From assembly GCA_008632985.1 (NCBI GenBank), contig QPGO01000172.1, positions 1-64,000 of the forward strand: DNA of 64,000 nucleotides, read 5' to 3'. This DNA comes from Psammoneis japonica (lineage: Eukaryota). The position numbers and the translations under genes were made by a program. Below are positions 1-61,832 of the stretch, in pieces (positions within the stretch are counted from its first letter, which is position 1; every line of letters starts with the position of its first letter). The notes under the pieces were generated by a model that saw only the letters and a list, made by a program, of their open reading frames with translations, was not told the origin of the DNA and searched no databases.

Positions 1-1299
1 GGCAGAAAGTCATGCAACATCTGATTGCAGTGAGGGAAGGTGCGTCAAGATGAAGGAGGGCAAGACTCAAACAACAATGCTTGGGTGCATTGCATGGCTG
101 TGGATTTTGTTTTGCAATTGCTGCAACGGATCTGTTCATCTCAGACACGTTGCAGAGCACAAGGGGTTGGTTTGCAAGGAATTCAATGGAGCACCGCTTC
201 TAGTTTGGTCAATGTCAACCGCAATCTCCTTGCTGCATTGGGAGCGAGCACTGCTTGCTCTTTTGCAACCAAGAGGCAAGCCATTCAAGTGCATTGTGCA
301 GTTGGTGAAAGAGGCAAAATGTGGTGGTGACCTTGGCAAGGTTTGCTCTTCCTCCCATCCAAGGTGGCAGAACATCAACAAAAGCCTGCATGACAGCAGT
401 CCAGAAACCAAGGATTGTCCATCTCTGCGTGTTTTTTGGAGGAGCAAGACAGAGTGCTGTGCAATCCAAACTCCACAGAACAAGAAAAGGACACAGCTCA
501 TCAGTTGACAACAGACGGGAAGAAACAAAAGGAGCTGAGTGTGCCGGAAAGAACGCGGAAAGCAGCCCAGCTGGGAAGTGTGAGAGGCACTTTGCACGTC
601 CAATCGGGTGCCTGCCTTGGGGATTGTCCTGCTGAGAATGCCGCACATGCTGCTTTGAATGATGATGATAAAAACGGATTCCATTGGCACCTCATTGACG
701 CTGTGGCAGAAAGCCATCCTGTTGATCATTTGAGTGGAATCGAGTTGGAGGAGGTGTGGAAGACATGTGAAGCTGCACGGAGACCAGTGCGCAACAACAA
801 AATGTTGGTGACCATGGTGTGCATGGACCAGCTCTCTTGCCACCTGCACCGTCTAAAGGAGCATGGTTTGAAAGAGGACTTCATTTTCCTGCATGATGAT
901 GGCACAGTCTTCCTGCCCATGCGACACAAGGAGTTGTGCCCCACTGCCGCAAAGACACATGGATTCAAACACAGGACAGAGTTCTTTGCAGTCAACAAAT
1001 GATGCAAACCAGAGGAATTTGTTGCCAAATGCGACCACACAACTGACCCGGAGAGTGTGTGATCATGTTCCAACCTTGTGGAATTCCAACAATTGACGTT
1101 GACAGAATTTGGGAAAATCATGTGAGAGGGAAAACACTTTGTTTTGATGATTTGTCTCACTTCACACACACTCCTGCCACCCAAGCACATGTCACCATTT
1201 AAAAAATTTCCGGCCACTCGTCCATGTTGAGGACAAACAACATCTTGAGACAAATTGGTTTCCTTGGTGCTGTCCTCCAAATTGTTTTCTGCACTTTTT

Positions 1300-4200
1300 T
1301 CATTTTTGGCTTTTTTTCATTTCTTCCCTCTGTCAATCAGTTCCATCTTTGGCAAGACAATGCCCATGCCGCCGCCAACAAGCATGTTTTTCTGACAATG
1401 CCGAAAGGTGCGTTTTGGTGATGTGCCCTCCATTTGCCAATGCTGAAACAAACCATTCTCGCTCATTTCCCTTTCAATGTCGCTTTGCTCCTTGCATGTT
1501 CTCCTGAAAACAACAACCTCTTTTTTGTCATCACTCAGAATGAACCCATGCAATTGCATTGGAAACAAGCTGTTGGTTCTGTCATCATTTCTGCGTGCAA
1601 CAGTTGGGGTTGGCCCAAAATTTCAACTCATGTTCGCCTGCAGACTCAACTCTGAACACACCACAACGTGTCTCCGTTTGATTCCCTGCTGGTTGCAATG
1701 GCACAAAAAATCTGCAACTTCCTCCTCCAAATGAGCGCTCCATTCCCTTTTCATCTCCAAGGTTCCGGTGCACTCGTGGTGTGTTTTGTTGACTCGGTCA
1801 ACTGTGAACATTGCCTGCCCCAGGTCGTGGTGTAATTTGGCACCGTGTGGCAAATCGTCTGTGGCAAGGGGATGGACAATCAAGTCATTTGCTCTCTCCA
1901 AAAGACTCTGCTCGTGCAGTTGGCTTGCAAGCTGAAGGGTGAACTCTTCTTCACTTTGCGAGGCTTGGCAGGTCCAGCTGGGAAGCTTTGCCCATTTTTT
2001 AAGACCAGACTCGCCTGTTGTGGCATCCCGCCCAGAAAACATGCCCCATCAACAAAGAGCAGCCACCAAGTGGAGCAAGTTGTGGAACTTTGTCGTTTTC
2101 CATCCATGTGTGCCTTCACCATGATCAACTGTGCTGTGCAGATCGAACATCAGAAGAACGAAGCAACACTCAATGTCAACGTGATTGGCTTGCAAGTGCA
2201 GGGAAGCATCACAGCTGCAAAAGGAGTGGAACAACAACAATTTGTTGAGCAAAAGTGACGGTTGATCCACATTGTCACAGTCCACTGAATGACTGGCCGG
2301 CTCTGGGTTGAAGCTCTTTGGCCTTTGGCAGAGTGTGAGAGGCAGCTCCTTTTCAATTTCTGAGCAGACCAATGGTTGGTCGTGAGAAGTTGCCTGTGTG
2401 CACAGAGGAATTGTTGTCATTGGGGATGCAGAATTGTTGGCGCAGGTTGACATTTCTTGTTTGCATCCAGACAATGTTGTGGCATGGATGAGCTTGAGAT
2501 TTTGTCAGCTGCGAAATGCAAGGACATGTGTGCAAGAGCCTGTGATGGCAACATTGGTTCTCCAGAAATTTGTCGTGGATGGGGCCATCATGATCGCATT
2601 CTTCGTTTGCGCGGGGCTTGTTGACCAAGGATGCGGAGGTGTCCATTTGATGATCCTTGGCAGATGCTTCCTCTTTGTCACTCTGTTCCTTGTCATCTTG
2701 TGGATTTGGCTGGTGTCCGCTGCAATTGCCTGCTGAATCATCATCATTGTCAAGCAAATCTTTGGGATTGTTGGCAACAAATTCACCTTCTTCACACACA
2801 CAACCATCATTGTCTTCTTCTTTGTAATCACAGTTCTCTTGTGGAGGCTGGCAGTCAAAATTTGAGGCTTGTTTTTTTCTTTGTCTTGTTGAAATCTGGA
2901 TGGCAACGAAGATGGAGCACGCGCTCTGTCCCTCTGCAGGCTGACCCACCAGTGCCATTGCAAACAGCTTCCCCATCTTTTGGTCACAGGTCAAACCGGA
3001 CAAGGTGCAAAAACCATTTTGCAAGACAACCGGTGGAGAAACGTTGATCTCTGACCGGGTCTGCACCGCTGAGATCCAAAAATGCGGACGTGTTCCAGCT
3101 CTAGGTGGGACCTCGCACTGCTGAACTGTGACATAATTATTTTTTATCATCCGTCGTATGTTTCGCACGTACATTTCTACGTGTTCTATTATAAAAAAAT
3201 GTTCCACACTGCCTGTTTTGCGAAGCCAAAGGCTTTCTGTTATCTGCACTTATGTCAATAAAAATGCGCTGGGTATATTCTTTAATGTCTAAAGAATGTG
3301 CCCGGGCACACTGTAAAGAATGTACTTCAAGTGTGGAGGAGGAGACACGTTCGCAAAATTGCCTCTTTTTCTGTTGGCGATCATTCATACATGCATTGCT
3401 TAATAATTTTACTACGGAGCTCGCACGTAGAATTCTACGGGCCCAATGTCACAAAAAGTCCCACCCAGGACTGGAACCCGTCTGCGGTTGACCAAATCAT
3501 TCAGTCAGCCTTTGGCTGAGTCGGGCAAATCGTCAACAACGACGGAGAGAGTCTGAGGGACTGTGCTGCCTTGGAACATTTGCATTGGATCGGGGGATGT
3601 GAACCCAAACACACCCTGACAATTGTCTCCCATCTGAAGAGGAAAGATTGAGTTGTCAACAGTGTGTTGGCCAAACACTTTGTGAAGTGTGGAGGAACAA
3701 ATGCCCATGCACCAGACAACTGCGCTGCGTGCCTTGGAACAAATTGATTCAGATTTAGCCTTGGACATCACTGCGGACATTTGTGATTCAACAAATGGAT
3801 GCCACGGACTGTCAATTGAACCGGGTGGTGGCCCAAGAGCTGCGACAGTCATGTGCTCCGTCACTTCCTGAGAAAAACACCTGCAGCAATGTGACAGTTC
3901 ATTGTTGCATGTCCAGGAGGTGTGACAAGCATGACTGATGCAGCAGGAATTTTCACGGCCAGAAACACGGCCGGTCACTTGTGCGGCATTGACAGCATCA
4001 CCCAACAATGTCACGCTCTGAACAATGATGCACTTGAACAACACTGGTCACCAAGTTGGGCACAACAGACAGGAGGCGATTCTTGTGCTTGAATTGCAGA
4101 TGCAAGAAGGGCAGATGAAATGCAGTGATGATTTCTGACATTCAACCCAAAAACGGGGTTCTTTGTTTTGCAACCTGTGCGTTTCGGAACAAATCTGAGA

Positions 4201-5100
4201 GAACGCCATGCTTCAAAATGACAATGGGCACATGCCTTGATGAGAGTTGCAGAGAAACAAATGGCTCCATCAAATGATGAGGTGCAACCTGTCCTTTCCC
4301 AGTTTTGTCGGTGCAGTGCAAAACAAAGACATGAAAGGATCCGGGGACAGTGGGGACGTTGCTGCCACAAAAACAGTTGCTGTGAGCTTCAGCGTCCTTC
4401 ATTTCAGCATTGTCGCGCAGTTTCCAGTTGCCGTTCTTGTCCAGCATGGGTTCACTGGAGAGAACCTGAGGCCAATGTGAGTTGGGAGGAATGTCAAGAT
4501 TTGAAAGATTGGCAAAAAGGGGGATCGTCGAACAGGTCCTGCAGTTGGAGGGAACTGAAGCAGGTCATTCTTGAGTTGGTTGATGATGGAAACAGACTCA
4601 AGGGAGATTTGCTGCAGAGCAGGAGCAACAACGCTGGGCAACACCAACTTGAGCTTGGACATAAAAGTTTGAGAAGAGGGCATTTGTCAGGTGACAAACA
4701 ACCCACCACTGGAGAATTCCTCCTGCACAGTTCTCAGCAATTCATCTGTGGCGCTGATTGGGGCACCCTTGGAGCAACACAAATTCAATGTGCAGACCAT
4801 GGGTGTGGTTTTGCTGTTGTAAACTTCGGGAGCCACGAGATCCTCATCTGCGGATGGGTGTCCAACTTGATCAAGAATGGCAAAAGGGCCAGATTTGGCT
4901 GCCACAGTGGCAGAAACCTTGGCATCGGAAGCAAACTCTTCATGGTCCGGAAACTGGCATTCTGAAACATCATTGGCGTGGGGAAGAACGGAATTGTCAT
5001 GGGGACCATGCGGCTCTGGCGTGGATGAAAATGCACGGTTAGATCACAACGGCCGGGGATTGTGTCGCGTGCACCCTTGTGGAGTTGGCCTGGCATTGGA
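1300..5100 (-). mobile_element. Degenerate Plavaka-like DNA transposase region (frameshifted, TpA-erased, interrupted by a MITE at 3087-3482); boundaries approximate
   Basis: Minus-strand ORF fragments carry motifs I recognise from Plavaka-type transposases: 'LHCTDKTG...LMEPF' (I.Y.DKT...EP), 'EAWRSLRFVP', 'GVFGFTSPDPMQMF', 'GWKTTKFHNLLH'. Tyr is nearly absent. Termini not identified. Confidence 0.6.
3087..3482. mobile_element. MITE family 1, copy 1 (396 bp, GAC...GTC imperfect TIRs, 4-bp TSD TGCG)
   Basis: Left GACGTGTTCCAGCTCTAGGTGGGA, right TCCCACCCAGGACTGGAACCCGTC. TGCG at 3083-3086 and 3483-3486. Homologous over its full length to 36783-37179. Confidence 0.9.
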
Positions 5101-8100
5101 GTCAGACCCTGTGGCAAGAAATTCAATGGGAGGAGTGCCAAGGGTGGAAGAGGCAGCAATGTCAACATGTTCATCTGATTCTCCCATTTGTGACTGTTTG
5201 CCATGAGCGGCGTCAGATTGGCGGGAAGATGCGGTGCGATTGAGGCTTTGAGAAAAGGACAGCTTGCAGGGAAGACAAGTTCTTGGGTGGCATTGAAGAC
5301 CAGTTGGGAGAAAACATTTGCTGCACATGAAACAATCATTGCCAATGGCAAAGGGGAGCATGGTTGTTCATTTTGTAAAAACAGTGGGATGAAAATGAGT
5401 GGGACGGACCACGTGGTAAAAACAACATGTGGCAGGTGACAAGATTGTGTTGCACAAATCAACTTGTGTGTGAGCATGCAAGATTGCAGCTTGGTTTGGT
5501 GCACAACATGATTGACAACACAGGACAAATCCAACTTTCCACAGTCATGGGAATTTTGTCATGCTGGCATGCATCTCAGATTGTTGCCCCACCAGATGCA
5601 ACACTGGTCATGTGTTGACACCGTGGGACCTGCTGTTGTCAACCCAAATTCTGACTCACAATGAGAACCAATGAAAATGTTCTCTGAGCTTGCACTGTGT
5701 TCTTCATTCTCAGTGAGTGCGAGCAGGTTGGCATTCAGCATTTGTGACAGTGATGGACTCTGTTGATCAAATGCATTCTTTTGTTTTCTCAACTTCTTGT
5801 TTTGCTTCAATCTTTGTCCACATTTCTGTGGGAAAATGCTGCATCATGTGGGGTGGCTCAAGTTGACATCACATCATGTGTGGTGGATGCATTTGTCAAA
5901 TGTCAAACAGGGTGGCTCAAATGCACCACATCATGCTGTGCGGGGTGGCTCAAGGGGATGCCAACATTGAATTTTGCAAGGAGTGGTCCAAGGGTGACAA
6001 GCACTCTTCTTTTTTTAATCTGCAATTGGCTGCTTTTGGGAAAGTCCTGAAACAAAGGGCAGACAAGGTTGCGGGTCTTTGTCATCCTCTGTTGAATTCC
6101 TGCTTGACCCAACTTGATGCACATGTCCTTGAAACGTTCATCTCATGGAGGATGGTTTGCGTGCAAAAGTCAAATGGTGGGTGGTGCAGCAGTCATCTTT
6201 TTTTGATGGCATGGGTGATGTCCTTGTCATCTTGTGAGAATGAGTCATTTGGTTGTGGCATCAGTGAGTTTGTTTGATCAGTGTCAGTGTTGAGTTGGTG
6301 CTTTTTCACCTGGTGTGGGCAGCAGGTTTTGATTGGCTTGACTCGAGTGAAGCGAGAGTTGTCAGCTTGCAAAAGGAACCTGGATGTCAAAGTGTGGAGA
6401 ACTGACAACTGCACAAGCACCCATCACCAAAGGCAGAACTCTGTGCATTGGAGCAGCAAGCAGCCAGAGCAACAAAAAAAGAAAAGAGGAACAGCCAGAA
6501 AGAACAGCAAAATCCAGGCATTTTGTGTTGGCAAAAAGCTTGGAAAGGCGCAGCATCTGAGGTGGCCAGAGAAATGATCTCTCAAGGCTCATTTTTGTGA
6601 TGATGACACAAGCAAAGTCTTGGCCAGGGCAGCCGCTCAAGGATGCACACAGTTGCCTGTGAGGCACCAAGCGCAGCACAGAAAAAGCAGCACGGATTTT
6701 AAAGCCGGGTGAGCTGATGATTTTTCACAAGCACCATTGCCAAAGGCAGCTGCACTCAAGGACAAGGAACAACAATTTGTGAAGCAAATTGTGGTGCACA
6801 GACAAGGAGTTTGTGAAGAAGTGGTGTGTCCAGCCACAGTGCTGATGGCCGCAGGGAGGCAGAGCAAAAGGAGCACCAGGGTGGCGCCACATGCCGGCTC
6901 TTGTTGCAAAGAGCTCTGCGTGCTCTGCATCTTGAAGAAACAGGTGGAAAGGATGAACAAAACACCAAAAAGGAAAACTGTGAAATTGTTTTGGGTGCCA
7001 AAAGCATGCAGTTCAGATGCTCTGCAGCACAACCCAGCAAGAGCTCATTGCTGCCCCTGCAGGCCAGCCAAAAATTCTTGCATGTTTTCCATGTCCAAGC
7101 AGCACCCTGCAAAGTGTTGTCAGCACCATTTGGGGGTGTGACCCAGCTGTTGTTAAGAGCTGCCTCACAAAAAACTGCTGCTTGTTCAATGCTTGTCTGG
7201 TGTCGCTGAATCTCCAAGCACCGCGTGAAAGGGCTGAAGCTTGCTGAAGATGTTTCTCTGCTGCCGTGTGCTGCTTCTGTCAAATGAGAGCACAAGCACA
7301 AGCTCCATGACCTCTTCACAGAGCCAGAAAATCATCATCTTTCCAGCTTTGGTGCAAAGCTCTCAGCACAGTCATGCTGCTGCTTTGCAGAAGCACCAAG
7401 ATCATGAGCAAGAGCAGCAGCAGAAGGCAGAAAGCAGCTCTGTGCATTGGAGCAGTGATCAGCCAGAGCAACCACAACAAAAATTAAAACAGCAGAAGTT
7501 TGCAGGCACGCAGCCTCTAAGGTGGTCAAAAATGATCTCCAGCATCATGATTTGAAAGCAGTGCAAGGAGGGCAGCAGCCAGGAGCAGCAGCAGAAGCAA
7601 CAAGCAGGGCAAGAAAATGAAGGCGCTTGCTCTTGTGAGCGAAAATGAAGACCCGCATTGTGAGGATGGCATGGGCAAAGTCAAGAAGCCACACAGAGAG
7701 AAGCAAGCCAACTTTGTGCAGCCTTGGCATCAGGTGGTGGCTCAAGAGTGCACACCATCACATGCGCGGCCAGCCGCGCTGCTTCCGAGGCACCAAGAGC
7801 AGCAGCTGTGCTGGCTGGCTCCCAACTGCAAGAGCTTGGTCTCTTGCACTGCCAACTCAGAACACTTTGTGGAGAAGTTGAAAAGCAAAATGCTTTGATC
7901 AATGTGTGCAGCATGGTGTGGCAGGAAGGAAATGGCGAGACAAGCACGAAGCAGCCACGCTGCAAAAGAAGAGGTCGCAACAGAGAGGCAGGAAACAAGC
8001 AACAGCTGACAATGGCAGCTCGCTTGGAACAATGCCTTCACATTTTCTGTGTTTGCTGTCCTCGTTGCTTGTGCCAGACTGGCGACCTTTGTGCCACAAG

Positions 8101-8199
8101 ATCTGTCATCTCCTTGCGCGCTGCACAACGGCGGTTTGAAGCTGTGTTTGACTGACTTGGTCCTCTGCCTCATGTGTGGTGTGGCAAAGTGCAGGATTG

Positions 8200-8415
8200 A
8201 CCAATTGCAAAGTTTTCTGCAGCAATCAGATCATTGCATCACTGTGGAACAGCAATTGGTTTTAATTGCAATCGCGTTTAGCTAAAAAAAGAGCTCAAAT
8301 CGATTGCAACAGTCGATTGTGATTGCGACCTTGTCTCTTTCCCAACAATCAGGTCATTGCAATCGAGTTTGCAATTGCGATTGCAATCAAAGTGAGGCTG
8401 ATTGCAATCGACACC
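8200..8415. repeat. Cluster of short (GA)TTGCAATC(G)/CGATTG motifs, probably transposon subterminal repeats
   Basis: Multiple variants of ATTGCAATCG, CGATTGCA and GATTGCGA in about 200 bp. Confidence 0.55.
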
Positions 8416-8794
8416 AGAGCAATGTTAGTCAACACTGGCAAAATGTCGCACACAGAGGCACGGCATTTAACAAATGACCTTCCACGTCAGCGCTGTCTTT
8501 GAGTCAACCCACCATTGCCTGTTGCCCCAAATTTGTTTGTGCCTGAATGACCGTCCAAAATGCCCATGCTGCAGGTTTCTACAGCAGGCATGCAGCGCAT
8601 CTGACATGTCTGAGGCGAAGCCAAAATTTCAAAAAGTGATCTTAAAACGACTGCTGAACGCCTCCAATGGTTTGATGGCAATCGTGTTGCGAAATGCTTG
8701 TTGTGGATCTTGAAACTCTCTCTCAGGTTCACTCTTTATTTCTCAAGTGACGATCCCACATGCTTTGTGCTTGGCATTGCTGTTGTTGTTGTTG

Positions 8795-9611
8795 TTTCGT
8801 TGCGTTGTCATTGCACTGTGCCAGTTGCTTTTGCCTGAAAGATTGTGTCTTTGTGGCAGTGTCATTGACACAGTCATTGACGACGTGTTCCACAGGGCGT
8901 GCAAGAAATTTAGCGGAACTGCTTCGATGAACGTCGCAGAAAACAGAAACAACAACAGCAGCAGTGAACGGTGTTGGTGCGACTTGGTGGCTTTCGTCCT
9001 GAGGTTCTGTTTGCAACATTTCTTCGTGGCGTTTCCATTGCATTTTTACATTGGAAGTTGCGTCCACAGGTGCTCAGGCTGCGTGACAGTTGACAAACCG
9101 ATCATGGGCGTCTTTCGTTTGAATCAACAACCCAGGGCTGTGTTTGAAACCCCGAAAGATCCATCCAAAAGTGTCTCAATCAGGTCTTTTGACACTGAAG
9201 ATGACAGAAGGCAGGTGCTGTGGAAAGAATTTGGAGACGACATCGCCATTGTTGCCATTGCTTTTGTTTCGTTGCGCTGCGTTGTCGTTGCACTGCGCCA
9301 GTTGCTTTTGCCTGAAAGATTGCATCTTTGCGGCAGTGTCATTGACACAGTCATTGACAACGTGTTCTGCAGGACACGCAAGAAATTTGGCGCAACTGCT
9401 TCAATGAACGTTGCAGAAAACAGAAACAACAACAGCGGCAGTGAACGGTGTTGGCACGACTTGGCAGCTTTCATCCTGAAGCTCTGTTTGCAACATTTCT
9501 TCGTGGTGTTCCCATTGTGTTTTTACATTGGAAGTTGCATCCATGGGTGCTCAGACTGCGCGACAGTTGACAAACCGATCATGGGCGCCTTTCGTTTGAA
9601 TCGACAACCCT
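8795..9611. repeat. Direct duplication of ~340 bp (about 8795-9133 and 9267-9611)
   Basis: Both copies run from TTTCGTTGCG..TTGCACTG.GCCAGTTGCTTTTGCCTGAAAG to TTTCGTTTGAATC.ACAACCC; also visible as a repeated peptide in ORF 8747..9622. Confidence 0.9.
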
Positions 9612-9947
9612 GCATTTTGTAGAATCCTTGTAGAACGTGCTGCGTCATTGGCGCATGATGATGAAGAACCCAGTTGGGCCGTGAAGAAGCTCCTGTCAAG
9701 TGAAAGAGTGTTGAACGAGCACGGCAAGCAAGGTTGTTTGTTGGACCCATTGTGGGGTGTCCTGTTCTTTAGAATGGACAAGAGAGTCCTTTCAATTCCT
9801 GCCAACAAGCACGACATGTCGGAGCCATCGGACAGTTGCTGTTTGTTGGGTTGCAGAACTTAATTTGGTGACTCCATCATGCCACACAGCACTGCACGCA
9901 AGTCGTCACCTTTGCCATTCCATTGAAGAACCTTCTCTCTTCTTCTG

Positions 9948-10195
9948 CCACTTTTGGGAAAAGTCCCAATGTGAAGGGTAGACGAGGTTGCTCTCGTCTC
10001 TGGCAATTGCGAGCAACCATCAAGGTGGCTGACTGCAGCAGCGCTTTGGTGTTTTTTTTCTGCAAGGCGGCCTACGAGAGCCAAGGGGTTGTTCCCCGGC
10101 GAGACTGAGAGTGGCATCTCCAAGAAAGGGGGTGCCACTCGATGTGCTGTGACCCGAATCTCTGTCAGTTGGGGTTCGCCTGCCCTCAAAGGTGG
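9948..10195 (+). ncRNA. Putative structured ncRNA/ssDNA module, divergent copy D
   Basis: Homologous to 40213-40495. Terminal stem CCACTTTTG/CAAAGGTGG, 13-bp hairpin GAGTGGCATCTCC-AAGAAA-GGGGGTGCCACTC with two G-U pairs, hairpin AGACGAG..CTCGTCT. Confidence 0.5.
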
Positions 10196-10291
10196 TGATT
10201 TTTTTTTTTAAATGGGGGCATGGCTAGATGGAATGATTTGATTGGTTGTTGACAACGGATGGGGTGGGATGGAATGACAAAACAGCGGGAT

Positions 10292-11260
10292 TCAATCATC
10301 TAAAGTGAGCTGATGGACCGCCTCCGGCCTCAAGAACGCCGGCATCATCGCACACGGAGAGTCACACAAATTCGCCTCATCGCCCCCCTCCTTGTGACCC
10401 CCCAGACTGAGGACCTCCACCGCCCCAAGGGAGACACCCGCCACATCCTGCGTGTGGACATCTGCCACCGCCGCACATGAGTGGAATGCCAATGCATCAT
10501 TGCGTGCATTGTCCTCCACCTCCAGCTCATCAAATGCCAGTGTTCGCAAGCAAACACCCCCCAGGTTTGAATCCTCTGAAGAGTGCAAAAGTCAAGGGCA
10601 CAAAAGCAACCAAGAGATCTGGAGATGACAAATCGTCCACTGCAGCAATCTGATTAAGAAGCAACGAAGGTTGCCCGCCGTGACTGGTGGCGACGTCTTC
10701 TTGGGAACCAGCCCACCGTCTTGCCTGACCAAGTTGTGTTTGAGGGCTGCCGATTTGCTTCAAACAATGGACGCATTGGCAACTCATAAAATGACGTCCG
10801 ACACACGCTGCTTGTTGTGTGTGGTGTAGTCACGATGGCCAAGACCAGCGTTTCAGCTCAGCGCCCCGCCGTGGCTGATTGTTCGGACCACATTGCACTG
10901 TGCTGCCTTGCGCTGTTGGGCTCCAAGGCATGTGTTTAACTCAAGGATGCTCGCCAGAATGCCGCTTGCTCAGCTCCGAACTGAATCATGCGCACCAACT
11001 CAGCAGGTTTGCGTGTGATGTTTGCGCGGAGGCCGGTGTCACGGTCCATGATTGTGACATTGTCTTGGAGATTCTGGTCATCAATTGCAACCCCAACGCA
11101 CTGGCCAACAGGACGGGGAGCTCACTGCGGCGGGTGACATGAAGACTGTCGAATGCCGGCAGCCTCAAGATTTTGGCCCTTTTCATCAGATCACCCTCCT
11201 CGCCTCCATCAAGGTCTCCTCCACAGAGACAGGCATGTTTGAAACCATTGACGACGTGCG
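10292..11260 (-). pseudogene. Degenerate TpA-depleted coding-like sequence of unknown family, ending ~100 bp from module D
   Basis: Broken minus-strand frames (e.g. VGVAIDDQNLQDNVTIMDRDTGLRANITRKPAELVRMIQFG; ORF 10292..10588). No recognisable motif. Confidence 0.25.
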
Positions 11261-17600: not shown

Positions 17601-17603
17601 CCT

Positions 17604-47882: not shown

Positions 47883-47908
47883 TTCGCTTCCCCAAGGGTA
47901 TAGTAAGG

Positions 47909-50900: not shown

Positions 50901-52486
50901 TTGAGTTCTTCGAGACAGTCGCTTCCAAGAATCAAGCCACAAGTCTTGTCCTCGGTCTCGTCGACATGAAAAGACCAGCGGAAGGTCTTTGATGTTGACA
51001 GTTCTGGCAAAGCAATGTCACACGCGACTCTATGACGACATGTGAACTCGCCAGTTTTTGTGTTGAAACTGGCAGATTTGACTTTTTGCCAGAATCTCCT
51101 TGGCACTTGAGATTTGTGGATCAGGGAAGCAGAGCTCCCAGAATCTAACAATGTTGGAGCACTTGACCCAGTGACAGAGTCGTCTTCTGGCAGTGCAGTT
51201 GCTGCTGATGCTGCCATCTTGCGCTTTTTCTTTGCAATTTTGGTGCCAATCGGCCTGATCGGACATAAAAAATTTCTCGTGACAGCGGCATTTCTACGCT
51301 CCGCTTTCGCGTGATCTATTTTGTCCTGTGAGCAATTGAGCCGGTGGCCATCAGATTGTTCACTGCTAGATTCACATTTTCTATTTTGTTTCTCGGAACG
51401 GCGGATCTTGCGTGCTCGTCCATCATCGTAGTCCGAGGATTCATCGCTCGAGGAGCAGTGTGATCTCTCTGATTCGTCGTCAGAGATGTGACAGTTGCGC
51501 TTGCGGTGACGGTTGTTCCGATCCTTGTCATGGCGCTCATTTTTGTCTCGGTCATCACGTTTGAAGGACACTTTTTTATGACGTGGATGTCCTGGGTGGT
51601 TGCACTCTTGGTCATTGTGTCCGGACCTTTTGCAAAAGTCGCAGCACTTGGGTTTCCGGGGAATCTTGCATCCGGACGTTCCCTTGTAAGACGCCTTGCG
51701 GTCGTTCTTCTTACTGTCACGGTCGTCGCTTCCATGACGGCGATCGTTGGAATGCTTGTTGCGTTTGTCCTTGCATTTCTCCGCCCTTTCCATGCGGTGG
51801 AATCGCTCCTTCAAGTCCTTTTTGGTGAGTTCTCAAGGGTTCATGCCGTTCGCCGTGAGTTTGTCATGCCAGGCTTGCGGCGCGCTCTTGATGAGCATGT
51901 TGACACAATCGTCGTCTGTCAAAGTGGGCTGCGTGTCTAGTGCCTCACCTTCGGTGTCGACGTCCAGCGGAAACTGCTGAAGGTCAGTTGTCATGCCGTC
52001 CATCGCGGAGACGAACTGTTTGTACGTCGCTCCGGACGGTTTCTTGACGGTCTTCAGGTGCTCGATCTGGTCACATCGAGGCGTGTCGCTCTCGAAGCAA
52101 CATGACTTGAACGTCTCGAGGACAGCTTGGAACATGTCCTCTGTCTCCAGCGCTGGATCTTCAAATTCCTGACGCGCTCGCTCCCAATCGGTCTTCGCTG
52201 CACCGATGAGGCAAGCAGAAAAGACGCCGAACTTGGACGGGCCTGCTTCACAGGGCTTGCGGTCAAAGATCTCCTGCACCTGTCTTAAGAAATCACATGA
52301 GAAACGGGGGTTGTCATCGCCACACTCACCGCTGAAAGATGTCACCTTCTTTTCGTGCGTTCCACTGTGGATGTCGGTCGGGACATCTCGAACTTCAAAC
52401 TTCGTAGCAGGGCCCTTGAAGCGTTTCGGAGTTTCCCACTGTCCGGTGAGTTCGAAGGACGGCACCGTAGTGTCGTTGGAGGTCAT
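47909..52486 (-). pseudogene. Single-frame gag-pol (Gag-CCHC, PR, RT, RNase H, IN) with two in-frame TGA stops
   Basis: ORFs 51833..52486, 48401..51814 and 47909..48349 share one frame. CDFCKRSGHNDQEC, LLDSGSS, RTHLDD (YxDD), DASDFQLGA, ADALSRL, HHCC, ADLIGP, HDQGGEF, NPQANSVIERVH. Domain order PR-RT-RH-IN. Confidence 0.95.
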
Positions 52487-52516
52487 TGTGAAAAGACGCG
52501 TGAAGTGAATTCACTG

Positions 52517-52689
52517 TGCACTGAGCTAGCATAACGTTGATCAGTTGATGAGAAAAAAGTGAGCTCTATGGTTAGACTGCTCATTGATCTTCTATAGAAT
52601 GGATCTGACTCATCGCTTGCATCATCAGATGAGCGACGTCAGAAGACATCTGCAAGTGTGAATTATAGATCTTAGGGCGGCGTACTGCA
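52517..52689 (-). repeat. 5' LTR of the Gypsy element
   Basis: TGCACTGAGC...CGTACTGCA on + strand; matches 47710-47882. Confidence 0.97.
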
Positions 52690-53834
52690 GTGCTCATTTG
52701 ATGCCTTTTCGCATCCACACGCGAGTGTGTATGGACCATGTGGCAAGGGTTTGGAATTCGGAATGCTACGGCAAGGGATCTATTAAGACTACATGATCGT
52801 ACGATGGCGTCTCGGAGGATGCATTTGTGCTCATGTTTGGTTTGCTCGTTCTTGTTCAAACAGCCAGCTACCATCCATTCATGCCACGAAAGGCCAAGCT
52901 CGTGCTGGTTACGTCATAAAATGCCGCCCATTCTAGCTATTCCTTTTACGTTTGACTATGACAGCGACGGGTACGACGATTTTTTTCGACGGACGAGATG
53001 GAATTCTTCAAAAACAATGTGATTGTCATTACTCTAGCAATATGACATGAGAGTTTCTTCTAGTCATACCATAAAGTGCATTTTTATTGTAATAGTCTAG
53101 ATAGGATAAACATCGAGCGACGAGTTCCGTGTAGAGGCGGAACCTCACAGATTATCCAGTCCACCACCGTCGGGCATGGTGAATGCTGCGTCTCTGCCTT
53201 GATTAAAAATACTGTTTCGACTAGTATCACTCTCAACGACGCGTTCATCTACTTCGTTTTGCATAAAGCTACATCACGGATTCGTTGTAACGTGGTGACC
53301 GTCATCATTATAGAAAACGGCATAGCCAACACCCAAACCAAGCACCACGCTAATTAAAAGCTCAACGGAAAAGGTTGAAGGAAGCAATAGTCATGAAGTG
53401 GATTCCCTCGTCTCTCCAAAATTATTGTGGCAATACAGTGTGTTGATCAGTTGAGAATAGGGCCTATGTAGCAAGACGACATGGAACTCGGTTAGCTAGA
53501 GGGAAGAATGCTTCGTCTTCGAGTTGAGAGGGATACAGCCAGTGACCTTTAAGAAAAGAATAGACCAGTGTAGGAAAAACTGATCAGCCTATAAAGCAAC
53601 CATAGAAAAAAAGTCCCAAATATAGTCAGTATCTGAAGCGTCGCTCGGAGATTCATTCATTTTTTGCAGCCCTCGCCCTATTGTGAGTGAATCAATTGTC
53701 GTCCAAGAAGTGTGATCTTCTCCTGCTCTACATCGAGCTTGACTTTCATTCGGAAGGTGCCGGAACAAGTTGATTGAAGCTGCTTTGCAATCGGAGAAAA
53801 GACTGGACTGGCTGAAGCCGTATTATACTGCAGC

Positions 53835-54990: not shown

Positions 54991-55149
54991 GCACGATGCT
55001 TGGAGCAACGATACTATGGAGGACCACATCGGACATCGGTGACGGTTTGCTGCTCGGTGGCGCAACAGACAGACTGCCGATCTGGGATCGAGACGGTCGA
55101 CCGGGTCGTCTCTTTGTTGGTGTCCCGCCCCACGAAAAAATAGCCAGCG

Positions 55150-57338
55150 CGCGTGACTTTGACAGTTCCAGCCACTGCCTTCAGACTTGTTGCCTTGAGC
55201 GTGACTTGCAGAAGTGTGGGAACTTTCAAGGTGGTGTTGGTGAGGGCGACGATTCAGTGATGATGGCAAGTGACACCCCAGAGGAGAGGCAATGCTGCAG
55301 CTTCCTCTGAACACCACTGAAAAAGTCATCTCAAAGTTCCCACACCTGATGTTTTTTACAAGCAACCCAAAACCTGTGTTTTTGCCAGGAGATTTCTTGG
55401 AGACAGAGCTCTCTCTTTGTGGGAAACAGCTCAGCTTGAGAGGGACCTTGAATTGGGATGGTGGAGTCCACCTCACTCAATGCATCAGAGGAGAGGCAAG
55501 CCAGATCTTTTGTGATGGAGTTGGGGATGGTTTCCCTGTCTGGGAGAGGCGGGTGTTTCGTGAGCAAGACCACCAGGTTTTTCAGAGAGAGCACAGCTCC
55601 CAGATGGTCATGGCCACAGCGCACAAGGTCTCAGACTTGGAGGTTAGAGAGGAGAGCAAAAAGCCATGGAAGCAAGAGCAAAGCAAGCCAGGAGAGGAAA
55701 AGCAAGGCAAGCAAAAGAAGAGAAAGATGGCGACCTTGGGCAGCGGTGCAGTCAAGAGCAAACAAGTGGCCAGAGCAGTCAATCTTGAGTTCAGGGAGAA
55801 GGGCAAGAAAGGTGGAAGATCACCAATGTACAGGGGGGTTGCAGCCAGCTCCTCTCTCAGGATGAAGATCGGCTTCTCTGCACCTTTTGTGAGAAAAAAG
55901 AACACAAGTTCAAGACAGAATGGCAGCTGGGCTGCAGGCTGGCATGCATTGATGGCAAATTGGATGAGCAATCTCTTCAAAAATTGTTTGAGAAAGAGGA
56001 GCACCAAGAAGCAGTTTGAGACCTTCAAGGGCAAATTGAGGAGGCTGCCAAACATGTGCAGCACATGATTTGAGGCTGAGGTTTTCAAGTTTTCTGCAAA
56101 CAACAACTCTTTTCTTTGGGTCTGCGGGAAATCACCATTTTTGCCACCTGCGTGTCAAAATTGATGGAATCGCGCCTGCCAGCACAAAATCTGTCTGGCA
56201 AGACAAATTTGTTGCCGACACCACCTCGCAGAAAAGACATTTTCAGAAACAACTTTTGATGCAACAAAACTGTGCGGGACAAAGAAAACTGTGTAAAGAC
56301 CCTGATGTGCACAATTGAAAATGTCCCAAAATTTGTGTTGTGTGGGAATGTGCCAGTCTTCTACATGCAAAAGAACCCGCATGTGCATTTTTCAAAATGT
56401 GCGACACAACTTTCAAAGTGCACATCCGGGTCACATTTTTTTGTGCAGATTTTGTGCTGGAAGTCTTGCAGGAATTCTAAAAACACCCGGGTGTGCATTT
56501 TTGAAACTGTGGCACAACTTTGATTTGTGTCAAAAGTTGTGCCAAAAATGCGCGAGCTCGTCACGCAGGAAAAGTGCGTGCGGCTGCACTGTTGGCATTG
56601 CAAATGGTTGAAACTCACAGAGATTCTCTGTTTTTTTGCTTTGAAGCACGATTTCCCGCAGAGCCTGTGTCCAATTTAGAGCTGCTTTGTCTGCACATTG
56701 TTGGCTTTTGCCATGCTTTTTGAAGCATTGTCTGCTGCTTGATGCAAGACGTTTCATCATTTGCCGGCACATGTCTGCGTGGAATTCACAGTGCACAACA
56801 CACGCGCAAATTTGTCCATGCTGCAGCTGGCATGTTGCCATGCAGAAATGTGTGCAAGGGTCACAAGTGCGCTTGAGTGCACTTGACAAGGAGCGCTTTT
56901 TTGGCTTTCCCCCTGAGCTGAGATGTCGGCAGCTCTTTGTGTGCCCAGACTTTGTTCATCAGATGCTCAGCCACAAACCTGTCCTCTCTTGTGTTGCGGC
57001 TGTTTGGACTCTCCATTGAGAAAGTCCACAGCAGCCCAGGCCATCCTGAGTGCTGACAAAACAGCTCTTGGCAAAACTTTTCTTAATTGCGCCAAATGCA
57101 CAAATTTCCAAATGATGGGAATCGAACCCACTCGGAGCACCTGGCCCCAATTGACTTTTTCCAAATCCGTTTTTTGCCAAATCGAAGGGCAAGTGCACAC
57201 TTTGCACGCATTTTCGGGTGGACACTCACCTTTTGATTTTCGAAACAATCAAAATTGAAGGAGTTAATTGCACTGAACTGCACAGAAAATTGGCCTCTCT
57301 CGTGATGAAAAGCAGATCACCTGGAGCTGGAACAGGCC
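55150..57338. mobile_element. TpA-erased transposon remnant ending in the family 2 TIR; subterminal-type repeats at ~56290-56560
   Basis: Ends ...CACCTGGAGCTGGAACAGGCC at 57338; 57087-57338 is homologous to MITE 24384-24643; repeated GTGCATTTTT, CACAACTTT and GTGCACA motifs. Left boundary is approximate. Confidence 0.6.
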
Positions 57339-57674
57339 AGCTGGCTTGGCTCTGTGTCAGCCCCTTGACAAAGATGCAGAGATTGTGTTGTTGTGCAGTG
57401 AGATGCTTTCCCTCAGTGTCAGCACAGCACCCTGCTTGCAGAGTTGCAAAATGGCATGCAAGCCTCCTCAAGCTCCTTTTGCCAGCGCTGCAGGGCAACT
57501 TGTTGTTGGCATGAAAAAGCTCTGAAGCAAGGTTCTTGGGTCGAAGAGTTGCTGGGCATGCCAAGCAAGCATGAGACCTCCTGTGAGATGTGCCCACAAT
57601 GAGACTTTCAACACAGCAATGTTGTGCACATGGGGTTTGAAGCAAGAGACACACATTGGCACACAAACATGTGT

Positions 57675-57862
57675 GCAGCATCAAGGGACAGACCATTGTG
57701 AGTGGTGGTGCAGGCGCTTGTGCGGTGAGCGATCGTGCTCTTGACTGACGCGATGCATCAAGGGACAGACCATTGTGTTCGGTGGTGCAGTCAGGCGCTT
57801 GTGCAGTGAGCGATTGTGCTCTTGATGCACGCATGGATGCAACGCATCAAGGGACAGACCAA
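57675..57862. repeat. Short tandem repeat, ~77-90-bp period
   Basis: GCATCAAGGGACAGACCA near 57678, 57755 and 57845, with CAGGCGCTTGTGC.GTGAGCGAT.GTGCTCTTGA in two units. Confidence 0.8.
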
Positions 57863-57934
57863 GAGCATGTTGGAGATGACATGATGCGATGTGGATGACA
57901 GAGATCGAGAAACAAAACTCAACACGGGACAACG

Positions 57935-58890
57935 ATGACAAAGCTCCGGATTGAAATCATCACAGATTCAAAGATCACAGTCGACCACAGGATGCCTTGG
58001 CGTGTTGTTTGTGTCGCTTGTCGATTGATGCTGCATTGCCGATGAAGAAATTGAAAAGGAACTTTTTTCCGTGGTGCGTTGAGTGTTGTTGAGCTTCTCA
58101 GAAAAAGCTTTCGATTGATGCAGCAAAGCATGCTTTGCTCTGACTCATGCTTCTAATTCTGCTTTTGCCTGTTTTCAATCGCACTTCCAATCCACTTGTG
58201 TCGGCTCGTGCACCATGGCAGGTGTCGAGGTCCCGGCTCTCACTTTTCGGGGAGCATTTCCGCCAAATTTGTTGATTTGCTTTCTCAGCCTGCCCACCTC
58301 TGGCCAATGCATTTCGTTGACACTTGGAATGACTGCATGACAAGTCCCATTCCAAAAAATCAAAAAGAAGTCATGGTCGTTTCGGACTCAAGCTGGACAA
58401 CAAACACGGCCACTGGCTGTCCAGACTGTGGATGCTTTTTCCGAGGTGCCGTTCGTTTTGACATTCCGGATTTTCTGCACCATTTGAAGAATTTCACCTT
58501 GGTGATTCCAAAGTGTGGAGAAGTTAAATTCCGTCGTAATTGGCAAAATCTACAGTCCAAAGCTGAATTTATGAGAAATGCGGGCCCACAAGTCTTTGCA
58601 GTTGCTGCAATTTCAAGACGGGGAGATGGGAGACTCAAACACAAGCAAGCCGCAGCATAAAGAGCAGCACGCTGCTGCTACAAGATGGTGCAGCTTGACG
58701 ACCAACAGTGCCAGTGATGATGTCATGTGCAATGCATTGATGCTCGATGCTTGCTGTGGATCCCCGCTGGCCACAGAGATTCTTCTTGCCGGCCACAACG
58801 TCACTTTGGCATGCCGAGAGGCCACAGCGGTGCTCTTCAGTGAGGGAGGTTCGGTCGTTTGCATTCCCACACGCTCGGGTGAGGAGATTG
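57935..58890 (+). repeat. TpA-erased duplicate of 61083-62028
   Basis: Aligns from ATGACAAAGCTCCGGATTGA to CGGGTGAGGAGATTG with indels; many substitutions are TA->TG/CA. Confidence 0.92.
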
Positions 58891-58989
58891 CCAGTCAGAC
58901 GGTTCAGCGAGTCGGCCAACACCTCATGGGAGCCGGTTGAGTCTTTGCTCAATCCCACCCCACTGCAAGTCTTTCTGCTTCTCCTTGTG

Positions 58990-59570
58990 CTTTCACAGTT
59001 GTGCGGTCCGACATGGTCAATGCCTTTGTCCTGCCCAACAATCGTGTGTTTGTCATGACGGGCCTTTTCCAATGTGTTCGAGACGAAGATGAGTTGGCCG
59101 CTGTGTTGGGACATGAATTGGCCCATGGAATTGCACGCCATGCTGGTGAAAAAATGAGCGGCTCCATTGTTGTCAATGTCGCTGCTCGGTTGTTGTTCTC
59201 AGTGGATCCCAGAGGGGTGTTGTTGTCCACACTTCTCCCGGCAGCTCAGTTGCTGCAGGTGCTTCCTAATTCTAGACAAGCTGAAACCGAGGCTGATCAG
59301 ATTGGTGTGTTCTTGACTGCTCAGGCTTGCTGTGATCCACGTGCTGTCAAACGCATTTTTGCGCAAGTTGTTTTCTTTGCGCACATTGGCATGCCATCTT
59401 GTTCATCATTCCTCTGCTGTCGGCATGTCCAGAGCAATGAAAGAGGGGGCAAAGGGAGCGCAGCCTCCAGAATTCATTTCGACTCACCCTTCTCATGACC
59501 GACGCACAGCTGGTTTTGACGACTGGATGCCAGGGGTTTTGGGGGTCTTTGAGAGTGATGCCAGTCACCG
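58990..59570 (+). pseudogene. Peptidase M48 (Oma1-like) gene fragment with a relic intron, TpA-erased
   Basis: VNAFVLPNNRVFVMTGL, ELAAVLGHELAH (HExxH), SRQAETEADQIG, ACCDPR (usually ACYDPR), EFISTHPS. Intron 59363-59432 reads GCAAGT...CAG and joins in frame. Confidence 0.88.
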
Positions 59571-61832
59571 TTGTCGTCAGGTTTGTGAAGGCACGTGAGC
59601 AGCTTGTTTGATTGCGGCGTAGAATCAAGGCACCACGACTTAACAGTGGTGAGAGGAGCTTGAATGCAATGGCACCAGGAGTTGAGAGTGGCGCTCTAGA
59701 GAGTTTGCAGGCTGAAAGAATGAAAGGGACATCGCCAACGACAACGCTGGCGCAGCAGGAGCATGTCGTGGGGGACGCAACAGTGCAGGGGCGGCGCTCG
59801 CAAGCGGGCTTGTGGCATGTTGTGCAAGTGATGGCTCTGCCGGCATGATGAAGGAACCGAAATTCGAAACTGGCAATGTCATGCCCAACAATCGAAGTGC
59901 TGCATCCTTTGTCGTTTGCCATCTTTTGCTGCTCTTCTGTTCAAGTTGTTGAACATTGTGGCAAGCAGGCAATCAGAGCCGAAATGCTCCAGCACACATC
60001 GGCGACGGGGCATGCCGTGACGAACAACCCGACGTGGACTCTGGGCAAGCAAGCACACGACGAAATCGCAAGCACTGCGACCGTCATCGCAGTCCATTTG
60101 ACGTGCACACGGAATGAATTGCGTGCAAATGAAGATTGCTGCAGTGTGCTTTTAGAGTCTTTCTGCTTCCATTGCAAAGGTTCAAAGCGTGTTTCAAAAA
60201 ATGTGAAACACACCAACATCAAAAGCAGCTGTTGAAATCGGTTGCGCAGGGTGACGTTGCCTCAAAAGCCCCGTCAAAAGATGGTGCTCAAGCTTTTGCG
60301 CATCTTCAGAGTGAAACGTCACTCAAAAAAGTAAAAGGGGGGACGTGCTTTGGAGACAACAAGAAAACTTGCGAGTCGACCGCGTTCTAAATCAATGCTC
60401 CCTGCGAGTGAAGACTTGCCGCATCATGTCGCTGATGCGACGGAACCCCAAACCTGCATTCCGTCAATGGCATGATCTGCTTGGCGAGCTTTTGCTGCTT
60501 CGTAGATGAACGCTGCTGTCTGTTTCAACAGCCGTGACCTGACGGGTCAAGCGAACAGGCAACTTCCTGCGCTCAAAGACACGAGAGTGACATGGACTCA
60601 AGGCCGGAGAGACGCACTCGATTTGCCCCGACCTCTGGACTCAACTGGCAACACCTGCGCCACCCAAAGACAACACGCCATCAAGCAAAATGAGTTGTGG
60701 AATGCCAAACAAGAGCGAGCTCTCAATCCAGAGGAAGGGCGAGCCATCCTCGGAGATTGCGGCTTCCGGCTTGGCAAACAACAAGCACATCGTGCGAGAC
60801 GATGAGTTGTGATCCGAACTCTTTCCGAGAGATTTTGTTTGTGTCGTGACCGTTGCTGCATTTCTCAATCACTGTCATTTTTGTGTGTCTCTGTAGAATT
60901 ACTACTTCTACCATGATTTCGTATGTAGAACATCCGTGAAACTTGCTACTTTCAAAATTATTACCAAATCCTACGTACACTTTACGGAACGCAAAAAATT
61001 GTCGCCAAGACTGACGTGTTCGTTGTCGAGGTCCGAGCTCGAGAATTAGCAGGTGGCACAACACATCATGCCACAGCACGGCATGACAAAGCTCCGGATT
61101 GAGATCATCACAGATCACAGTTATTGTTTGTGTCGATTGATGTTGTATTCCCAACGAAGAAAGTGAAAAAGAAACCTTTTCCGTAGTAGTACTGTACGTT
61201 GAGTGTTGTTGATTGTCGAGCTTAATTCACAGAAGAAGCATTTGATTGCAGCAAAGTATGCGAATGCTTTGCTCTGACGCATGCTTCTACTTCTACTTTT
61301 ACTTGTTTTTAATCATACCTCCAATCCATCCACTCGTATCGGTTCGTGTACGATCCCGGATATCGAGGTCCCGGTATTCACTTTTCGGGGATAATGTTCG
61401 CAAAATTTATCGTTTTGCTTTCTCAACCTACCTCTGGCCAAGTACGTTTCGTCGACACTTGGAATGACTGCATAACAGGTCTTATTCCAAAAAACAAACA
61501 GAACTCGCGGTTGTTTCGGACTCAAGCTGGACTATTATGGAAATCCTACAACAAACACGGCTACTGGCTGTCTAGACCGTGGATACTTTTTCCATGCATC
61601 AATGGAGCCATTCAATTTTTACGGGAGGTGCCGTTCGTTTTGATATTCCGGATTTTCTGCACTAAAGAATTTCACCTCGGTGATTCCAAAGTATGGGGAA
61701 GTTACCGTCGTAAATGGCGAAATCCAATTGGGAGGACTCGAAACTGTACTGTCCAAAGCTGAATTGATGAGAAACAGCCCACAAGTCTTGGTATTTACTG
61801 TAGTGTCATCTGCTGCTACAAGATAGTACAGC

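Follow-up and report, generated by a model that had tools for sequence, protein, structure and literature searches.

Sequence signature of an in-place hypermutation of TpA in repeated DNA of the diatom Psammoneis japonica

A stretch of 64,000 nucleotides from the genome of the diatom Psammoneis japonica (assembly GCA_008632985.1, contig QPGO01000172.1, positions 1-64,000, hereafter the window) was analysed for the loss of the dinucleotide TpA from kilobase blocks of repeated DNA. Comparison of the copies of these repeats indicates, with high confidence, that a process of the diatom turns TpA into TpG or CpA on chromosomal DNA, in place, on either strand and in kilobase tracts over repeated or silenced DNA. 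A mutator of this kind, acting on both strands at the DNA level, had been proposed in a first-pass annotation made from the letters of the window alone, and the proposal was upheld in every polarised comparison, namely between the copies of a 4.9-kb element, between the copies of a 1-kb duplicate, at conserved tyrosine columns and between the long terminal repeats (LTRs) of a Ty3/gypsy retrotransposon.

TA-depleted blocks

TA blocks were called with a two-state Poisson hidden Markov model (HMM) in 100-bp bins over the 64-kb window, and the TA-depleted state is referred to as LOW. For the whole window the ratio of observed to expected TA (TA O/E) was 0.30, TA being the sole strongly aberrant dinucleotide. 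Eight LOW blocks (Table 1) with a TA O/E of 0.03-0.15 per block made up 40,200 bp, or 63% of the window, and the remaining 23,800 bp gave values of 0.46-0.79. LOW DNA contained 211 TA (5.25 per kb) versus 1,011 (42.5 per kb) in the remainder, at whose rate about 1,700 were expected. TG stood at 100.3 per kb in LOW DNA versus 75.2 in the remainder (+25.1), CA at 95.0 versus 74.3 (+20.7) and CG at 37.0 versus 55.1 (-18.1); the joint loss of TA and CG (55.3 per kb) is thus close to the joint gain of TG and CA (45.8 per kb). The two products are near balance in LOW DNA (4,032 TG and 3,819 CA), from which it follows that both strands were mutated.

The borders of the LOW blocks are sharp, with transitions within 40-400 bp; at one of them sparse TA ends at 11264 and gives way to dense TA from 11305 onwards. 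In 1-kb windows, TA O/E was 0.00-0.25 in the TA-poor stretches named by the first-pass annotation versus 0.41-0.85 elsewhere, and the borders of these stretches lie within a few hundred bases of those of the HMM blocks; missed were the TA-normal part of the third element copy at 39601-43300 (O/E 0.51) and two TA-normal islands of 400 bp inside LOW DNA (3101-3500 and 36801-37200). The stop codons TAA and TAG together occur at 3.7 per kb in LOW DNA versus 18.2 per kb in the remainder, and 147 stop-to-stop frames of at least 110 amino acids were counted in the whole window. Since the change of TA to TG or CA creates no stop codon and removes TAA and TAG, long frames persist and mislead gene callers.

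Changes after integration in a Ty3/gypsy element

The LTRs and the target-site duplications of a retrotransposon are identical at insertion. The two LTRs of the Ty3/gypsy element, part of which lies in a hypermutated tract at about 48441-52694, are identical at 168 of 173 positions; four of the five differences are TA>TG/CA and one is CG>CA, and all five are derived in the LTR that adjoins the tract. The 5-bp target-site duplication reads GTACT and GTGCT, with one TA>TG on the tract side. Over the 178 aligned positions of LTR and target-site duplication there were six differences of the target type (five TA>TG/CA and one CG>CA) and 0 others. Because the paired sequences were identical at insertion, these differences represent changes made to DNA after integration. 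These LTRs show no trace of background substitution so far, which indicates that TpA mutation is far faster than background.

In the interior of the element (48441-52516) TA O/E was 0.15 and CpG O/E 0.95, with about three quarters of TA gone; this combination of low TA and near-normal CpG means that TpA loss is much faster than CpG decay. The tract fades across the 5' LTR, in which 4 of 14 TA were changed, and the 3' LTR together with 560 bp of the internal 3' end (about 730 bp) was spared and is dense in TA, so that the borders of the tract match neither those of the element nor those of its transcript.

The effect on the encoded protein was assessed at 23 conserved tyrosine columns, defined as columns with at least 70% Tyr among 45 homologues of the gypsy pol product. 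Here the element has Tyr in 3, Cys in 11, His in 5 and Phe in 4, while other conserved residues were kept (D 19/21, R 22/24, G 26/30, P 29/31); Ile was replaced by Thr in five cases and by Met in two. The occurrence of both kinds of replacement at Tyr and at Ile shows that either strand was hit. The catalytic motif reads HLDD at 50074(-), where the majority of the 45 homologues have YIDD. It is one of three peptide motifs noted in the first-pass annotation, all of which were found again, the others being DASDCQ at 28395(-) and ACCDPR at 59325(+). The replacement of Tyr by Cys and His with D, R, G and P retained is the pattern of damage and not of adaptation. None of the 120 best relatives of gypsy pol was Tyr-poor (minimum 2.83%), a search that ranks intact copies first and is uninformative on frequency.

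Context of the changes in three copies of a 4.9-kb element

The 4.9-kb element occurs in the window as two hypermutated copies (A and B) and one mostly TA-normal copy (C). The three were aligned over 5,076 columns, with copy C as stand-in ancestor for substitution counts. At TA sites of copy C, both other copies had TG at 26 sites, both had CA at 18, and one had TG and the other CA at 22; the last class implies an ancestral TA hit in separate events, on one strand in one copy and on the other strand in the other. Among adjacent double differences CA/TG led as well (90 of 329 between A and B, 53 of 268 between A and C, 53 of 210 between B and C), the next being AC/GT with 20, 12 and 15 cases, respectively.

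In copy B, A>G was found at 51/112 TAN, 24/323 AAN, 37/312 CAN and 23/269 GAN, and T>C at 46/113 NTA and, at background level, at 19/213 NTC; overall, 97 of about 113 ancestral TA sites were changed versus 7-12% A>G in the other A contexts. C>T at NCG was 45/188 and G>A at CGN 52/190 (97 of about 189 CpG sites), with 51/735 for non-CpG C>T and 170/3,623 for transversions. Copy A gave A>G at 42/113 and T>C at 28/113 TA sites of copy C, and A>G at 37/323 AAN. These counts point to two context-bound processes, on TpA and on CpG, which give the same products and neither of which is a general GC bias. A context-free GC bias, named in the first-pass annotation as a competing account, does not fit copy B, in which A>G outside TA stays at background.

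The AAN control also bears on polymerase eta, whose error-prone repair at WA motifs in repeats had been put forward in the first-pass annotation as a candidate source of the changes. A:T>G:C at an A with a 5' T does belong to the WA signature, but AA is at background in both hypermutated copies next to the TA counts given above. WA mutagenesis is contradicted by this control and is accorded very little probability.

Within the first approximately 1,060 alignment columns, copies A, B and C are all TA-poor and have common states, with 20 variable TG/CA/TA sites versus 152 in the rest of the alignment; TA O/E of copy C is 0.14 in 43301-44200. This 5' kilobase was therefore already mutated in the common ancestor of the three. 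Copy C has Cys or His in 8 of 20 conserved Tyr columns despite an open frame of 1,109 amino acids. Evidently, partly mutated master copies kept transposing and the process recurred in the history of the element.

The element protein is about 1,100 amino acids long and rich in Cys and His. It had no Pfam match, and DUF6729 was found in only 6 of 33 relatives; the element probably represents an unclassified family of DNA transposons. The tail-to-tail arrangement of copies B and C makes 38335-40496 an inverted repeat.

A 1-kb duplicate, a satellite and gene fragments

The two copies of a 1-kb duplicate lie 3 kb apart, one of them in LOW DNA and the other unmutated. The 45 TA of the normal copy correspond in the LOW copy to 19 TG, 15 CA and 5 TA (34/45 changed), while in the reverse direction 0 of 122 TG/CA sites of the normal copy are TA in the LOW copy.

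The 187-bp satellite is almost free of TA and CG: its 16 aligned monomers contain 3 TA, 25 CG, 392 TG and 300 CA among about 2,900 dinucleotides, and CpG O/E is 0.05-0.13 in 25-28 kb. Satellite columns that mix TG and CA numbered 9, versus 2-4 for control pairs of dinucleotides. The loss of CpG to TpG and CpA is, by all indications of the sequence, a process separate from TpA loss, as it is present in most blocks and absent in the young gypsy element.

Two fragments of host-type genes lie inside the hypermutated DNA. In the Peptidase_M48 fragment HELAH is intact, and ACCDPR is aligned to ..GYNPN.. of 3c37_A; the second fragment is the C-terminal part of a coatomer-beta gene. The two may be pseudogene duplicates or may have been captured by a transposon. 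Altogether, LOW DNA includes the gypsy interior, a gypsy RNase H fragment, element copies A and B, the satellite, anonymous multi-copy DNA and the host-type gene fragments.

This range of sequences decides against A-to-I editing of transposon RNA that was then fixed by reverse transcription. The 5' U preference of ADAR and of fungal A-to-I editing resembles the context seen here, but the mark is found in the satellite, in host-gene fragments and in what is probably a DNA transposon, the LTR and target-site differences arose after integration, both strands are about equally mutated, and the gypsy tract mismatches the transcript and spares its 3' 730 bp. With non-retro sequence marked and the changes made after integration, this route was excluded, and we regard it as scarcely credible; the first-pass annotation had argued likewise from both-strand changes in DNA transposons, a satellite and intron-containing fragments.

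Authenticity of the LOW sequence and the same mark elsewhere

Contigs assembled from publicly deposited DNA reads of this sample (run X1) were compared with LOW DNA and showed 0, 1 and 0 letter differences over 495, 499 and 864 bases, the third with one gap. The k-mer contigs that reproduce LOW sequence had a depth of about 45-70x. A check against raw reads had been suggested in the first-pass annotation; the X1 contigs do carry the TG/CA sequence, but the run may be the source of the assembly itself and is not counted as independent support.

Relatives of the 4.9-kb element protein are encoded by 370 stretches of metagenome contigs, of which 79 loci were retained, all from microbial mats. Among them were six LOW-like blocks of 0.9-1.3 kb each (6.45 kb of 452.7 kb), with TA O/E 0.05-0.10, TG/CA 1.4-1.96 and CpG 0.36-0.67. 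In public relatives of the element protein, Tyr ranges from about 3.5% (normal) to as little as 0.2-0.8%, and Cys and His are elevated. At 20 conserved Tyr columns, the public proteins P0167, P0177 and P0168 have Cys in 11, 13 and 13, His in 5, 4 and 3, and Tyr in 2, 2 and 3, respectively; conserved Phe and Trp were kept in all three (Phe 18/18 in P0167). The mat contigs and the public proteins support the mark independently of this assembly. The Tyr-free, Cys/His-rich public 'proteins' P0167, P0177, P0188 and P0189 are artefacts of hypermutation, since hypermutated DNA carries long frames on both strands.

A cause other than mutation, be it an artefact of assembly or base calling, the composition of foreign DNA, selection against TA or context-free GC-biased conversion, is highly improbable on these data. 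The sole DNA run found is of the same sample as the window, which leaves some room for an artefact, but read contigs at about 45-70x reproduce the LOW sequence and independent metagenome assemblies have the same blocks. In addition, copies differ as TG versus CA at the same sites, conserved Tyr residues are destroyed, and A>G outside TA stays at background.

Sequence hit and sequence spared

Depth was summed from X1 contigs with at least 90% likeness. Unique genes gave about 53-75 and LOW DNA in 1-11.3 kb gave 98-982, which identifies the latter as multi-copy, and near 11,340 the depth becomes that of single-copy DNA. The targets are transposons and, in addition, the satellite, the M48 and coatomer fragments and the 1-kb duplicate of undefined origin. 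Ordinary genes in the window were spared. Two copies of a miniature inverted-repeat transposable element (MITE) lie inside LOW DNA and are 77% identical; the MITE had a depth of 32,523-46,341, about 500-800 times that of unique DNA, and is the most abundant repeat seen. The description 'repeat-targeted' in the first-pass annotation is thus borne out in part: LOW DNA of 1-11.3 kb is multi-copy, but the MITE, the gypsy 3' LTR, the greater part of copy C and one of the two duplicate copies escaped. This pattern would fit a length threshold of a few hundred bases, and equally activity in episodes or silencing domain by domain.

Several points weigh against the proposed hypermutation or limit what can be said of it. 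The MITE, the repeat of highest copy number in the window, was spared, and so were the gypsy 3' LTR with 560 bp beside it, the larger part of copy C and one member of the 1-kb duplicate pair. The preference for neighbouring bases is inconsistent: retention of TA by 3' neighbour rises from TAT (0.03) over TAC (0.09) and TAG (0.17) to TAA (0.23), tentatively suggesting a preference for TAY over TAR, while by outcome only TAC is distinct (52/80 changed to TG). The TG or CA outcome predicted from the retention preference was found in 7/19, 52/96 and 36/57 cases (Fisher P 0.06, a trend only). Strand-coordinated runs of TG or CA were not significant in copies A and B (P 0.08-0.16 across tests), with 31 runs versus 37.1 expected in copy A (P 0.09) and 52 versus 60.0 in copy B (P 0.08). 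The read data are perhaps from the same sample as the assembly. Finally, the data are sequences, and since TpA is self-complementary, deamination of A and modification of T predict identical sequence changes.

Proposed mechanism

The explanation that we consider moderately probable as a whole combines the process described above with adenine deamination, targeting by silencing or homology, and a separate decay of CpG. The host process, of which we are highly confident, rewrites TpA to TpG or CpA (A:T>G:C) on either strand, with sharp or short-graded borders, running near saturation and far above background substitution. Its targeting would depend either on silencing, whether by small RNA or by chromatin, or on homology beyond a certain length. 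CpG loss from LOW blocks would be the slower decay of methylated cytosine. Inactivation comes about by missense changes (Tyr>Cys/His and Ile>Thr/Met), without stop codons, and TA-rich signals should also be erased.

For the chemistry, the tRNA deaminases TadA and ADAT2/3 offer an analogy, as they act in the context U33-A34, with the same 5' T/U. Deamination of an adenine with a 5' T, the inosine then being read as G, would give the observed products, and an enzymatic reaction of this type is favoured over modification of thymine, with a confidence that stops a little short of even.

The thymine alternative, to which we assign a small yet appreciable probability, is that a TET/JBP-type oxygenase acts on silenced repeats and converts the T of TpA, as an epigenetic mark, to 5-hydroxymethyluracil (5hmU) and then 5-formyluracil (5fU); the oxidised base would mispair with G and give T>C as a by-product. 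The palindromic TpA lets the sequence data fit equally well, and a symmetric site suits a mark maintained on both strands. Dinoflagellates, which like diatoms belong to the stramenopiles, alveolates and Rhizaria (SAR), are described as placing 5hmU on transposons by a TET/JBP enzyme with a TA/TC preference (PMC11572971). Against it stand the background level of T>C at NTC in copy B, 19/213 next to 46/113 at NTA, and the proposal of deamination favoured by the authors of the one comparable study, on Bigelowiella natans; the route also presupposes that 5hmU or 5fU is mutagenic.

A symmetric N6-methyladenine (6mA) at TpA in heterochromatin, methylated A being deaminated or misrepaired faster in parallel to CpG decay, would likewise draw on the palindromic target and on the joint occurrence of TpA loss and CpG decay. 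The known symmetric 6mA site of eukaryotes is ApT and not TpA, ApT is only mildly reduced in LOW DNA, to an extent explained by the loss of TAT and ATA, and we know of no chemistry that makes 6mA hypermutable; this alternative is improbable. The preferred reading remains deamination of adenine at TpA.

Features of the window

Pfam scans covered 232 stop-to-stop frames, eight of which were re-scanned at E<=1, and most LOW DNA had no Pfam family in them; Rfam and tRNA scans of the whole window gave no match. The coordinates of the features are collected in Table 1.

Table 1 Blocks, elements and genes in the 64-kb window
Feature	Position	Strand	Remarks
LOW block, anonymous repeat DNA	1-3100		HMM; TA O/E 0.03, CpG 0.41; no Pfam match; summed contig depth 241-558
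MITE copy 1	3087-3484		about 397 bp; TA-normal inside LOW DNA, TA O/E 0.79
LOW block with coatomer-beta C-terminal fragment	3501-11300		HMM; TA O/E 0.07
Coatomer-beta C-terminal fragment	~10966-11237	+	over two frames; Coatamer_beta_C E 1.5e-8, 1.7e-5
TA-normal genic DNA	11301-19800		TA O/E 0.59, CpG 0.99
APS kinase / ATP sulfurylase / pyrophosphatase fusion gene	12361-15695	-	Pfam; in TA-normal DNA
LOW block	19801-32200		HMM
LOW DNA with 187-bp satellite and gypsy RNase H fragment	19801-28946		
187-bp satellite	24007-27475		about 16 monomers, 72-80% alike; Tandem Repeats Finder (TRF) period 187
Gypsy RNase H fragment	28063-28551	-	RT_RNaseH_2 E 7.8e-27; contains DASDCQ
4.9-kb element, copy A	28947-33717	+	hypermutated; 79.9% identical to copy C
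LOW block	32601-36800		HMM
4.9-kb element, copy B	34327-39402	+	hypermutated; 86% identical to copy C; MITE inside at 36783-37179
MITE copy 2	~36783-37179		inside copy B; 24-nt terminal inverted repeats seen here
LOW block	37201-39600		HMM
4.9-kb element, copy C	39410-44340	-	mostly TA-normal; open 1,109-aa frame 40896-44225
LOW block	43301-44200		HMM
Ty3/gypsy LTR retrotransposon	47710-52689	-	Pfam RVP, RVT_1, RNase H, integrase zinc-binding, rve
Gypsy LTRs	47710-47882, 52517-52689		173 bp; TG..CA ends; purine tract beside 3' LTR
Gypsy pol	48404-51832	-	
LOW block	48701-52400		HMM
LOW block with mutated duplicate copy and Peptidase_M48 fragment	55101-60800		HMM; TA O/E 0.07
1-kb duplicate, LOW copy	57935-58933		
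Peptidase_M48 fragment	58941-59495	+	E 3.7e-27
1-kb duplicate, unmutated copy	61083-62071		

The best relatives of the trifunctional fusion protein are from diatoms (Fragilaria, Ditylum, Mayamaea, Nitzschia and Odontella; 75-80% identity), which identifies the host as a diatom from the sequence itself. Over the region of its gene, 12361-16012(-), a 4,000-nt contig of a second run (X2) skips 13676-13776, 15692-15855 and 16013-16489. As the contig is spliced over this gene, run X2, which is labelled 'DNA?', resembles cDNA; on the minus strand, the gene contains two or more introns of the GT..AG type. Contigs of X2 leave most of 1-11.3 kb uncovered, a blank from which silencing is not concluded. 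The frame at 19275-20846(-) had a weak LRR_6 match. A 1,761-nt X2 contig differs from the window at 37 of 831 bases over 19170-20000, and this mismatch implies that a paralogue of that frame, about 95% alike, lies elsewhere and is present in run X2.

Comparison with known systems

The first-pass annotation had known of no description of such a signature, but one is given in a 2026 preprint on the chlorarachniophyte Bigelowiella natans (Mettrop et al., bioRxiv 10.64898/2026.01.13.699255). There, two viral insertions are reported to have gained 231 mutations, of which 230 were A>G or T>C, all at TpA, the rate in mutation-accumulation lines was about 6e-7 per site per generation, with 11 of 15 lines affected, 124 TpA-poor clusters were enriched in reverse transcriptase (RT) and DDE domains, and an ADAT2-like deaminase was put forward as a proposal. 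A full-text literature search found the signature described only in this preprint and found no report from a diatom.

The diatom signature matches the hypermutation of TpA in B. natans: A>G and T>C are concentrated at TpA on both strands, both products occur, and discrete kilobase tracts lie beside normal DNA with a TpA-poor, CpA- and TpG-rich footprint that includes RT and DDE domains in the preprint's account. Activity in some lineages only, at a rate about 1000-fold over background, is a further mark of the B. natans type, for which the six target-type and 0 other differences in the gypsy LTRs and target-site duplication, next to an interior stripped of about three quarters of its TA, give an indirect hint in the diatom. 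New here are the other SAR lineage (B. natans belongs to the Rhizaria, the diatom to the stramenopiles), the closer approach to saturation and the wider range of targets. In B. natans the process was measured in mutation-accumulation lines on single-copy insertions of giant virus and virophage, which are described as far from saturated (Rho TpA 0.45), whereas in the diatom it is inferred from sequence and lies near saturation (O/E 0.03-0.15 over 63% of the window). Unlike in B. natans, LTR and other transposons, a satellite and duplicates of host genes are hit in the diatom window, with CpG decay alongside. The gypsy element moreover provides an internal proof of action in situ that is lacking in the footprint analysis as given in the available text of the preprint.

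Besides the diatom, the organism of the preprint is the only eukaryote reported to turn A:T>G:C hypermutation on its own chromosomes. A matching signature in a diatom suggests that the process is widespread in SAR, as inferred from two lineages and from unassigned metagenome contigs. A more far-reaching reading, which we think doubtful but worth stating, is that diatoms and chlorarachniophytes share an ancient SAR-wide defence in which a DNA adenine deaminase, or else a thymine oxygenase, finds any duplicated or invading DNA, host duplicates included, through silencing or through homology of more than a few hundred bases, and erases every TpA in place. If true, nature would have in it a programmable editor that makes A:T>G:C changes in double-stranded DNA of the chromosome. 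The diatom offers a second lineage for the enzyme hunt, and a natural TpA-specific DNA adenine deaminase would be of interest to base editing. The young gypsy element, whose LTRs are clean and whose interior is saturated, can serve as a natural time-course of the process. On the practical side, divergence-based ages of transposons in diatoms will be inflated, affecting repeat dating and annotation, and hypermutated long frames have already been called as Tyr-free proteins in public databases.

Diatom transposons are reported to carry CG methylation, dependent on DNMT5a in Phaeodactylum, and diatoms also have DNMT4, related to RID and of undefined function (PMC9998398). Deamination of 5-methylcytosine would explain the CpG>TpG/CpA component in the same blocks, with the same products, the methylation being presumed. 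It cannot remove TpA, however, and the young gypsy element has low TA (0.15) with CpG kept (0.95).

ADAR hyper-editing and APOBEC3 resemble the diatom process as deaminase-type systems that make clustered, context-specific transitions in selfish nucleic acids. They differ in acting on RNA or on pre-integration cDNA and on one strand, and APOBEC converts C to U. ADAR prefers a 3' G, whereas TAG is among the better-retained contexts here.

The 5hmU of dinoflagellates is made by TET/JBP enzymes, is enriched on transposons and silences them, and preferentially replaces T in TA and TC (PMC11572971). In common with the mark described here, it is directed to the transposons of a SAR lineage and is reported to favour TA. 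It differs in being an epigenetic mark for which the available text reports no mutational footprint, and in targeting TC, which is not a target in the diatom.

A further parallel is with repeat-induced point mutation (RIP) of ascomycete fungi, which changes C:G to T:A, mostly CpA to TpA, and creates TA and stop codons. As in RIP, genomic DNA of the diatom is altered in place and on both strands, one dinucleotide class is taken to saturation in repeats, neighbouring genes are spared, leakage past the border is short and short repeats may escape. The direction is opposite, with TA destroyed and no stop codons made (0/122 TG/CA to TA in the duplicate), and one copy of the 1-kb duplicate is untouched. 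A trigger by duplication above a length threshold would fit the multi-copy LOW DNA of 1-11.3 kb and the sparing of the 397-bp MITE and the 173-bp LTR, but would not fit the sparing of that duplicate copy and of most of copy C. If the SAR-wide defence were true, it would be the functional mirror image of fungal RIP, killing by missense changes and loss of signals instead of by stop codons.

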